Below are positions 3,001 to 6,000 of a DNA stretch of 64,000 nucleotides, piece after piece (within the stretch, counting starts at the first letter, position 1; every line of letters starts with the position of its first letter). The stretch is taken from NCBI RefSeq assembly GCF_009931435.1, contig NZ_CP043414.1; one strand, given 5' to 3'. Made by a program: the position numbers. The DNA is from Escherichia coli (lineage in GTDB: Bacteria; Pseudomonadota; Gammaproteobacteria; Enterobacterales; Enterobacteriaceae).

Positions 3001-6000
3001 GCAATAAGTGATTAGCATCACAGATTTATCGCGTATATATCATTTTTTTGTGACTTATTTATTAAAGGAATAAGAAAGGAAATTTGAATTAAAGACAAAG
3101 GCGCAGTACAGAAAGTACTGCGCCCAAAGAGGTTTTATACGGCTTTATTGCGCTTCATGACCATTGCCACAATAAGGCTGAGTAAGAGCGCGCCAATAAT
3201 CCATATCAGCGCACGACTGCCCTGGGACCACAGACTGTAGATGAAGCCAACGATCACCAACAACATAACCAACGTGCCAACGATAAGAATCGGCAACGAG
3301 GCATGGATATCATGACGCAGGCGGATCGCCACCACAAACACCGCCAGGTAGCAGATCAAAAAGGTGGCACTGGCAACGCTGGCGAGTGAGCCTAAATTTA
3401 GCGCCGCCGTCATCAGCATAATCAACACCACGACGATGATGTTGCCCCAGGTACTCTGCCGCCACAGAGATTTATTCATTAGCTTCGGCAGTTCGCGTTC
3501 GCTTCCCATGTTGTCCATGATGTTAAACACGGCGAACAGGTTCGCGTTGATGGCTGAAGCCGTCGCCAGTAAAGCACCGATGACAACGATCACATAACCC
3601 ACATGCCCGAGGAGCGGAGATGCGGCCTGCGCTACGGCGGTATCGGCATATTTTTCTAACTCTAATGCCGATACATCGCTAAGCAGTACCAGCGCCAGCG
3701 CGATGTAAAGCAGTGTGGTAACGCCAATCGCCACCAGAAACGCCCGTGGCATAATGACCGCCGGATCTTTCACTTTATCCGCCGCGTTCGCCATCATGCC
3801 AAAGCCCGCATAGGCAAGGAAGGTTATCCCGATACAGGAGAAGAACGCACCGGAGCTGGGAGGCGCAGAGACGGAAATATGCGCCGGTTGTAGCGACCAG
3901 ACACCGGCAATAATCAGCAATAACAGGATCATCATTTTAATGCCGACGAGGATCACTTCCAGCCGCCCTACCGCATGGTTGCTTAAGGAGTTGAAAAGCG
4001 TCATCACCGCAATGATCCCCAACGCGTAGAGCAGAATAAGGTGCTCCTCCTGGCTGCCTTCATGCAAAAACTGCACGGCATAAGCGCCAAAAGCACGGGC
4101 GACCATGGCGATGCTTACCGCCAGCGTCAACAGGTACAGTAACGAGAGCGCCAGCGAAAAGACGCCGTTGCCTAATCCGCGACGAAAGAAGTCGATAATA
4201 CCGCCATTGCTGGGATAGCTCGCCCCCAGACGCGCATAGGCATAACCAGAAAACATCGCCACAATACCACCAAAAGCAAAGGCGACCCAGGTCGAGGCTT
4301 CCATTAGCAACGCAGCCTGCCCCAGCAGCGCGAAGATCCCCGCCCCCACCATTGCCCCAATGCCAATGGAAACGACGTTCCATAGACCGAGGGGTTTGTT
4401 ACCGTTATTACCTTCCGTGTTCATCATGATCAGCCCTTAAACACGTTATAGCCGAGTTGATTAGCGACCGATGCCACCATTTTTTGACCGCGAACACTGT
4501 TGCCTTCTTCGTCCAGTGGTGGTGAAAACGCGGCAATTCCCATCACGCCAGGGACAACCGCCAGAATACCGCCACCTACACCGCTTTTGCCCGGTAAACC
4601 AACGCGATATGCCCAGTCACCGGAGCGACCATACAGCCCTTCCATCATCATTTCGGCCAGAATGCACGGCACGTTGTCGGCCTGAAGAACGCGTTTATGC
4701 GTCAGCGGATTCACACCACCCGCCGCCAGCGTCGCGCCAAGCGTTGCCAGTTCAATAGTATTGAGGAGCGTGGAGCACTGACGGGTATACACGTCACAGG
4801 CTTCCATTGCATCACAATAGAGATATCCGGCGGAGTACAGCAGCCAGGCTATGGCCCGGTTATGGAAGTTGGTTGTTTGTTCCGACTGGTTGACTTCATC
4901 AGAGAGCGCTACCTGCTCACCAGCCAGTTGTTGTTGGATATGTAAAATTCGCTGCCAGCGTTGTTCAGTATTTTCAGCGTTAATCAGGCTGGTGGTGGCA
5001 ATAGCGCCAGCATTTACCAGTGGCGAAAGCGGTTTGCCGCCATGCAACTCTAAGGCGATAACGGAGTTAAAGGGCAATCCGGTCGGGTCAGCGCCAACTT
5101 TGTCCTGTACCGCCTGCGGGCCGACATCTTCTAACGCAAGGGCTAACGTACAGACTTTTGAGATGGATTCCAGCGCAAAGCGGTAATCACTGTCACCCGC
5201 GCTAAAGACTTTACCATCGCAGGTCACGATAGCCACTGCCGCCAGTTGACTGGGCACATTCGCCAGAAAGGGAATGTAATCGGCATTTTGTCCGCCGTTA
5301 AGTGAGTGAAATTGGGTGTAAGCCTGATCCACTGCCTGCTGTAATGTGTTTGCATCTAACATCTTTTGTTAACTCCTTTTTATAGATGCGGGAGGGGATT
5401 CCTCACCCCGGTGCCGATTTTCAGGCATCCTGATTTAACTTAGCACCCGCGACTTAACTACAGGAAAACAAAGAGATAAATGTCTAATCCTGATGCAAAT
5501 TGAGCCGATTTTTTAATCTTTACGGACTTTTACCCGCCTGGTTTATTAATTTCTTGACCTTCCCCTTGCTGGAAGGTTTAACCTTTATCACAGCCAGTCA
5601 AAACTGTCTCAAAGGAGTACGTTATGTCACAAACTATCGACCTGACCCTGGACGGCCTGTCCTGCGGTCACTGCGTTAAACGCGTGAAAGAAAGTCTCGA
5701 ACAGCGCCCGGATGTTGAACAGGCGGATGTGTCTGTCACTGAAGCGCACGTTACCGGGACTGCCAGTGCAGAACAGCTGATCGAAACCATCAAACAAGCG
5801 GGTTATGACGCATCTGTAAGCCACCCAAAGGCTAAACCGCTGGCGGAGTCATCAATCCCGTCGGAAGCACTGACAGCGGTTTCTGAGGCGCTTCCGGCAG
5901 CGACCGCCGATGACGATGACAGCCAGCAGTTGCTGCTGAGCGGCATGAGCTGCGCCAGCTGTGTCACCCGCGTACAAAATGCGCTGCAAAGCGTACCGGG

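Follow-up and report, generated by a model that had tools for sequence, protein, structure and literature searches.

An intact CueR operator at copA and the probable position of cueR in an Escherichia coli chromosome carrying O-island 28

Introduction

The copA promoter of Escherichia coli K-12 (PcopA) has reportedly been studied as a CueR-activated promoter of the MerR type by Outten (2000), Stoyanov (2001), and Yamamoto and Ishihama (2005). The same promoter has been examined together with CueR by cryo-EM (PMC8169799), and that article attributes the CueR core site, CCTTCC-N7-GGAAGG, to Yamamoto and Ishihama 2005. For the K-12 sequence, to which the promoter described here is identical, activation by CueR in dependence on Cu(I), Ag(I), or Au(I) is established in the literature (PMC8169799, PMC5329002). 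According to the mechanism given in the literature (PMC8169799), a CueR dimer would occupy the CCTTCC-N7-GGAAGG dyad within an over-long 19-bp spacer. The Cu(I)-bound protein would bend and undertwist this spacer, and the distortion would let sigma-70 RNA polymerase engage both hexamers, leading to the transcription of copA.

The placement of cueR has been described for two genera. Permina et al. 2006 (PMC1526738) report a copA-cueR divergon in Salmonella and, for E. coli, assign cueR to the final position of a ybaS-ybaT-ybbI operon. Two further descriptions concern a secretion island. O-island 28 (OI-28) of EHEC O157:H7 consists of tolC28, rtxA28/rtxB28, hlyB28, and hlyD28; the paper on it speaks of acquisition and makes no mention of cueR (PMC12758282). 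A siiEA locus has been described in E. coli UMN026 (PMC3256949).

Genes around copA and the secretion island

The window is the whole 64-kb stretch of E. coli DNA that was analyzed. Around copA it contains the following genes and elements.

1 to 1333, minus strand: 5′ part of a gene annotated as siiEA in relatives, which encodes a giant adhesin related to BapA; from the ATG at 1333-1331 it is open for 444 codons and continues past the window edge
1442 to 2797, minus strand: TolC-family outer-membrane gene (tolC28 of OI-28), of which an intact relative matches TIGR01844 with E = 2.7e-123
3099 to 3125, minus strand: terminator-like hairpin 3′ of ybaT with 11 pairs, 7 of them G-C, followed by TTGTCTTT
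3135 to 4427, minus strand: ybaT, APC-family permease
4430 to 5362, minus strand: glsA (ybaS), glutaminase, divergent from copA
5624 to 8128, plus strand: copA, Cu(I)-exporting P-type ATPase of 834 aa, the regulated gene

The homology of the window to K-12 ends at about 3107, 28 nt past the ybaT stop and inside the 3′ arm of the hairpin. The island begins at this point, and counted from ybaT the TolC-family gene comes first and siiEA second. The preliminary description had placed a T1SS island where K-12 has cueR, and this boundary and the two genes next to it agree with that placement. The island is OI-28 of EHEC O157:H7, known in E. coli UMN026 as the siiEA locus, and it has been described already. 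Both a TolC-family gene adjoining ybaT and a gene for a giant adhesin of the BapA/RTX type are present in the window. The likeness to OI-28 of O157:H7 extends to the gene set and to the chromosomal site between ybaT and cueR, and in O157:H7 genomes hlyD overlaps cueR as it does in H1, the complete genome closest to the window. The two differ in their adhesin genes. EDL933 has two RTX genes, whereas the contigs near-identical to the window have a single siiEA whose product of 6925 aa carries BapA_N and Big_13 domains. These contigs were retrieved by an exact look-up of the CopA encoded in the window, are 99.96-99.98% identical to it (GCA_030511265.1, GCA_036246705.1, and others), and hold a complete siiEA. 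The island’s ABC gene for a permease/ATPase (TIGR03375, E = 1.6e-251 in H1) and its hlyD for an HlyD-family adaptor (TIGR01843, E = 1.1e-97 in H1) are located outside the window.

In tolC28, window base 1795 is an A and six of six contigs of 99.96-99.98% identity have a G, which corresponds to a change from CAA to TAA at 1793-1795. The resulting nonsense codon divides the product of 451 aa between two ORFs, one of 334 and one of 103 aa. Either OI-28 secretion would be defective in the source strain, or the base would be a sequencing error.

Several other features of the region were recorded. In copA, the CCCAAAG slippery site at 5825-5831 and the surrounding 90 nt are identical to K-12, where the annotation derives a soluble Cu(+) chaperone from this site by frameshifting; the chaperone is probably retained because this segment is the same as in K-12. 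The stretch 8129-8556 is without ybaQ, the HTH antitoxin-like gene that lies between copA and ybaP in K-12, and H1 lacks ybaQ likewise. Some other E. coli contigs (L011, L013) have a HigB-like toxin gene and ybaQ at the equivalent place. Between ybaK and ushA, a two-gene insert of 1359 nt (10036-11394) encodes a 218-aa DUF6896 protein (10202-10858) and, in an overlapping ORF (10855-11358), 167 aa without a Pfam match; neither K-12 nor H1 has the insert, which occurs in 774 of 5426 E. coli genomes. Four Rfam matches reach the gathering score and form the expected set for an E. coli chromosomal region: sroB at 9350-9433 (minus strand), which is called ChiX at the orthologous K-12 position, a dnaX frameshift element at 24514-24578 (minus strand), the small SRP RNA at 41383-41479 (minus strand), and sraA at 59131-59226 (plus strand).

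The copA promoter and its CueR operator

Direct reading of 5554-5585 gives ttgaccttccccttgctggaaggtttaacctt; the last base, 5585, directly follows the −10. The promoter is composed of the following elements.

5554 to 5559, plus strand: −35 hexamer TTGACC, read directly and identical in K-12
5557 to 5577, plus strand: CueR operator dyad ACCTTCC-N7-GGAAGGT, whose core matches the published CCTTCC-N7-GGAAGG (PMC8169799)
5558 to 5563 and 5571 to 5576, plus strand: core arms of the dyad, CCTTCC and GGAAGG
5560 to 5578, plus strand: 19-nt spacer enclosing the core dyad, with the spacing counted by hand
5579 to 5584, plus strand: −10 hexamer TAACCT, separated from the −35 by 19 nt

The −10 was assigned from its spacing and from the literature, and 39 nt separate it from the copA ATG (5624). 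Positions 5554-5584 are the canonical CueR-dependent copA promoter and belong to the already known PcopA/CueR system: the core inverted repeat is there, the dyad lies within a 19-bp spacer, and the site is orthologous to a characterized promoter. A generic sigma-70 scan limited to spacers of 16-18 nt detected no promoter at PcopA, as expected, because the 19-nt spacer of the MerR type exceeds that range.

The likeness to K-12 PcopA comprises all 32 promoter nucleotides, the placement in front of copA, and the divergent orientation of glsA; the distance to the cueR locus, as seen in the closest island-bearing relative, is the only difference. In an alignment of the 261-nt glsA-copA intergenic region with K-12, all eight differences fall outside the operator. 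The 32 nt that span −35, spacer, and −10 are base-for-base identical to K-12, and at a background divergence of ~4-5% this count of 0 differences would not be significant by itself. The case for conservation is made by a 48-nt stretch around the operator that 5356 of 5426 complete E. coli genomes share at 100% identity, with both island-bearing O157:H7 and island-free K-12 derivatives among them, and by the central N7 of the operator, which was left unconstrained in the comparison across species described below.

With up to three mismatches allowed, the 32-mer 5554-5585 has one match in the 64-kb window, compared with none in 100 dinucleotide-preserving shuffles. The core dyad with at most one mismatch occurs once, compared with 0.08 expected, and this occurrence is perfect (5558-5576); the same search finds no second CueR box in the window. 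The intact MerR-type promoter with its CCTTCC...GGAAGG dyad in a 19-bp spacer, which was the central observation of the preliminary description, is therefore borne out by direct read, shuffles, and K-12 alignment alike. That the dyad is a chance palindrome, or the operator of a different member of the MerR family, is exceedingly improbable. The long-spacer architecture is common to MerR-family operators, and nothing specific speaks for another regulator. Chance is opposed by the outcome of the shuffles, and a different regulator by the identity of the site with the characterized PcopA and of its core with that of PcueO. ZntR was considered as a candidate and rejected, since its operator has another consensus, a 22-bp palindrome in a 20-bp spacer (PMC1526738).

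Arrangement of copA and cueR across the Enterobacterales

A degenerate operator pattern, TTGACCTTCC-N7-GGAAGGTTTAACC, was scanned against species representatives with the central N7 left free. At least 120 loci matched, mostly from genera of the Enterobacterales and a few from outside the order. Among the 120 matches listed, the free N7 is CCTTGAT in 54 and CCTTGCT in 37, and 98 have a CueR homologue directly upstream, encoded on the opposite strand. At least 60 of these 98 divergent loci have a spacing of ~10 nt between the start of cueR and the −35. Salmonella and most Enterobacterales share the operator frame and the downstream copA with the window. Their cueR abuts the operator divergently, whereas Escherichia has glsA-ybaT in between, an arrangement seen in only two loci among the 120 listed, both from Escherichia. 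In Escherichia, copA and cueR are never direct neighbors. The preliminary description had regarded cueR as displaced from its usual neighboring position. This is correct relative to ybaT in K-12; as a general statement it is centered on K-12, which is itself a deletion derivative (see below), and the usual arrangement across the order is the divergon, in agreement with the description by Permina et al. 2006 (PMC1526738).

Location of cueR

A tblastn search finds no CueR homologue in the 64-kb window (best E = 1.1). The window ends inside siiEA, and the position of cueR is taken from relatives of the source genome. A match to the window exists in 5422 of the 5426 complete E. coli genomes, and in 953 of them it extends over the end of the island as well. 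H1, the closest of them, is 97.9% identical over the first 10 kb of the window and 99.1% identical further on. Its gene order is ybaT, the TolC-family gene, siiEA (20.7 kb), the T1SS ABC gene, hlyD, and cueR, and the ATG of cueR overlaps the stop of hlyD by 4 nt (ATGA). This overlap of cueR with hlyD28 is a mildly new observation. The distance from cueR to the copA operator is ~28.3 kb in H1 versus ~2.6 kb in K-12, where the order is copA, glsA, ybaT, cueR and cueR starts 124 nt after ybaT.

The junction is not peculiar to H1. A query made of the hlyD 3′ end and cueR is covered by at least 80% in 959 complete genomes, compared with 953 that carry the island end of the window. In 10 of 10 neighborhoods listed for the H1 HlyD, a MerR-family gene of 135 aa overlaps the HlyD stop by 4 nt. 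By exact look-up the H1 HlyD protein is very widespread (32,216 blocks), and the CueR protein is found in 86,347 blocks. The relatives strongly indicate that in the source genome cueR is located ~28 kb leftward of the operator, just past OI-28, where it would close a co-directional array of glsA, ybaT, tolC28, siiEA, the ABC gene, hlyD, and cueR. From here cueR would supply a diffusible regulator to the copA operator. Two points of the preliminary description agree with these comparisons: cueR directly after ybaT is the K-12 gene order, and its presumed position beyond the island holds in the relatives, as seen in the H1 order, the 959 genomes with the hlyD-cueR junction, and the ten neighborhoods.

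If the source genome had lost cueR or carried it in an inactive form, the operator would be an orphan and copA uninducible or weakly expressed. The absence of cueR from the window is compatible with such a loss, and so is its rare absence elsewhere: among 5426 complete E. coli genomes two have no detectable cueR and two more have partial matches only, a base rate of ~0.04-0.07%. The source strain also already has a private nonsense mutation in the adjacent island, and because of this nearby mutation the loss of cueR is granted a small probability and regarded as very improbable. Against it stand the detection of cueR in 5424 of the 5426 genomes (99.96%), the linkage to hlyD in every island-bearing neighborhood inspected, and a CueR protein that is the same in K-12 and H1, with a gene ~95% identical between K-12 and island-bearing strains. 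Since the protein is identical despite this divergence of the gene, CueR appears to be under strong purifying selection. A retained cueR past OI-28 is therefore the preferred reading.

Across E. coli the cueR DNA falls into two allele classes, one of 3205 genomes with at least 99% identity to K-12 and one of 1594 genomes with 90-95%. The sampled island-bearing strains have the divergent class (90-95%).

Origin of the K-12 arrangement

The spacer between ybaT and cueR in K-12 was compared with the island-bearing locus of H1.

13870 to 13993 of the K-12 locus (L003), corresponding to 4342 to 4441 of the H1 locus (L002): ybaT-cueR spacer, a frameshifted hlyD relic of ~31 codons

Over its last 85-96 nt, this 124-nt spacer matches the 3′ end of hlyD at 94.5% identity. 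In translation the spacer reads VAVDIRTGKK and then, one frame over after a 1-nt deletion, VLEYLLKPFNKAQEALRER*. The C-terminus of HlyD is MVATVDIRTGKKSVLDYLLKPFNKAQEALRER* and aligns through its last residue to the final profile position of TIGR01843. The K-12 layout is thus considered derived, a deletion scar, because its spacer is a frameshifted relic of a genuine HlyD C-terminus. The recognition of the spacer as an hlyD28 relic is mildly new. On the other side of the scar, K-12 retains ~31 nt after ybaT, and its breakpoint cuts the 3′ arm of the ybaT terminator hairpin, which is intact in the window. The ribosome-binding site of cueR, AGGAGG, is hlyD coding sequence in island-bearing genomes.

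In 10 of 10 island-free genomes sampled across the ranking, the match to the hlyD-cueR query starts at the same base (query 343). This common start suggests one deletion event, or one allele that spread later. The K-12-type genomes would have lost tolC28 through most of hlyD by a single deletion, which would have cut the ybaT terminator hairpin and left the relic of ~31 codons, including the ribosome-binding site of cueR. On the basis of this one relic, the island-bearing layout is taken to be older than the K-12 layout within E. coli.

The preliminary description implied the opposite history, in which OI-28 was recently inserted into a K-12-like ybaT-cueR junction and displaced cueR. The island is not found in ~82% of complete E. 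coli genomes, OI-28 has been described as acquired (PMC12758282), and Escherichia sp. MOD1-EC7003 (L127), which is 94-95% identical to the window, has a K-12-type junction; all three would fit a recent insertion. Such an insertion would leave the piece of hlyD in island-free genomes unexplained. The K-12 spacer encodes a frameshifted relic of a C-terminus conserved in the HlyD family, the hairpin truncated at the K-12 breakpoint is whole in the window, and an Escherichia lineage of 91% identity (L042) holds an island that has decayed separately and differently, in which part of a tolC gene, remnants of siiEA, and an ABC fragment are left. A recent insertion is accordingly judged quite improbable, and the deletion in the K-12-type genomes is preferred.

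In MOD1-EC7003, glsA itself looks truncated: ~45 codons align by the copA promoter (6712-6846), and the equivalent of window 4567-5260 is deleted.

Action of CueR in trans

The promoter of cueO in K-12 (PcueO) consists of TTGACC, TTCCCGTAAGGGGAAGGAC, and TATGCT, and it has a 19-nt spacer with a perfect CCTTCC-N7-GGAAGG core. It shares the −35, the spacer length, and the perfect core with PcopA and differs in the central 7 nt (CGTAAGG) and in the −10 (TATGCT). PcueO is also unlinked to cueR, from which it is separated by 377 kb in K-12. In addition, a plasmid-borne cueR activates a chromosomal PcopA-lacZ fusion, as stated in a paper that refers to the assay of Outten et al. 2000 (PMC5329002). 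The distance between cueR and the operator is functionally immaterial, given that CueR in K-12 also controls cueO, at a distance of 377 kb. It is established that CueR acts in trans in every E. coli, and the additional 26 kb are irrelevant to the mechanism. The action in trans that the preliminary description had presumed is well founded in the shared core dyad at the distant PcueO and in the plasmid assay (PMC5329002).

Expression of cueR with and without the island

The different surroundings of cueR may affect its own expression. In OI-28 strains, cueR would be the terminal gene of a 25-kb T1SS array, co-transcribed and translationally coupled, which would tie CueR dosage to the RstA-controlled expression of the adhesin island; the K-12 deletion would instead have fused cueR to read-through from glsA-ybaT. 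This proposal, built on gene order and overlap, is speculative and rather unlikely to hold as a whole. In K-12, read-through from glsA-ybaT into cueR may have been gained with the deletion, because the breakpoint lies in the 3′ arm of the ybaT hairpin. A simple scan with spacers of 16-18 nt yields no candidate promoter near cueR in K-12 or H1. The papers on OI-28 and CueR that were consulted make no mention of a coupling of cueR to OI-28 expression.

Conclusions

Taken as a whole, the explanation that PcopA in the window is canonical, that cueR lies past OI-28 and acts in trans, and that the K-12 layout is the product of a deletion is very probably correct. The copper biology is barely affected by it, as a diffusible regulator is indifferent to whether its gene lies at 2.6 kb or 28 kb. 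For the history of the locus, the hlyD28 relic upstream of cueR in K-12 argues against a view of OI-28 as simply “acquired” by pathogens. The overlap of hlyD28 with cueR raises a small question about the transcription of cueR in island-bearing versus island-free strains. If the proposed coupling were true, the expression of one and the same copper sensor would depend on upstream signals that differ from one E. coli lineage to another.
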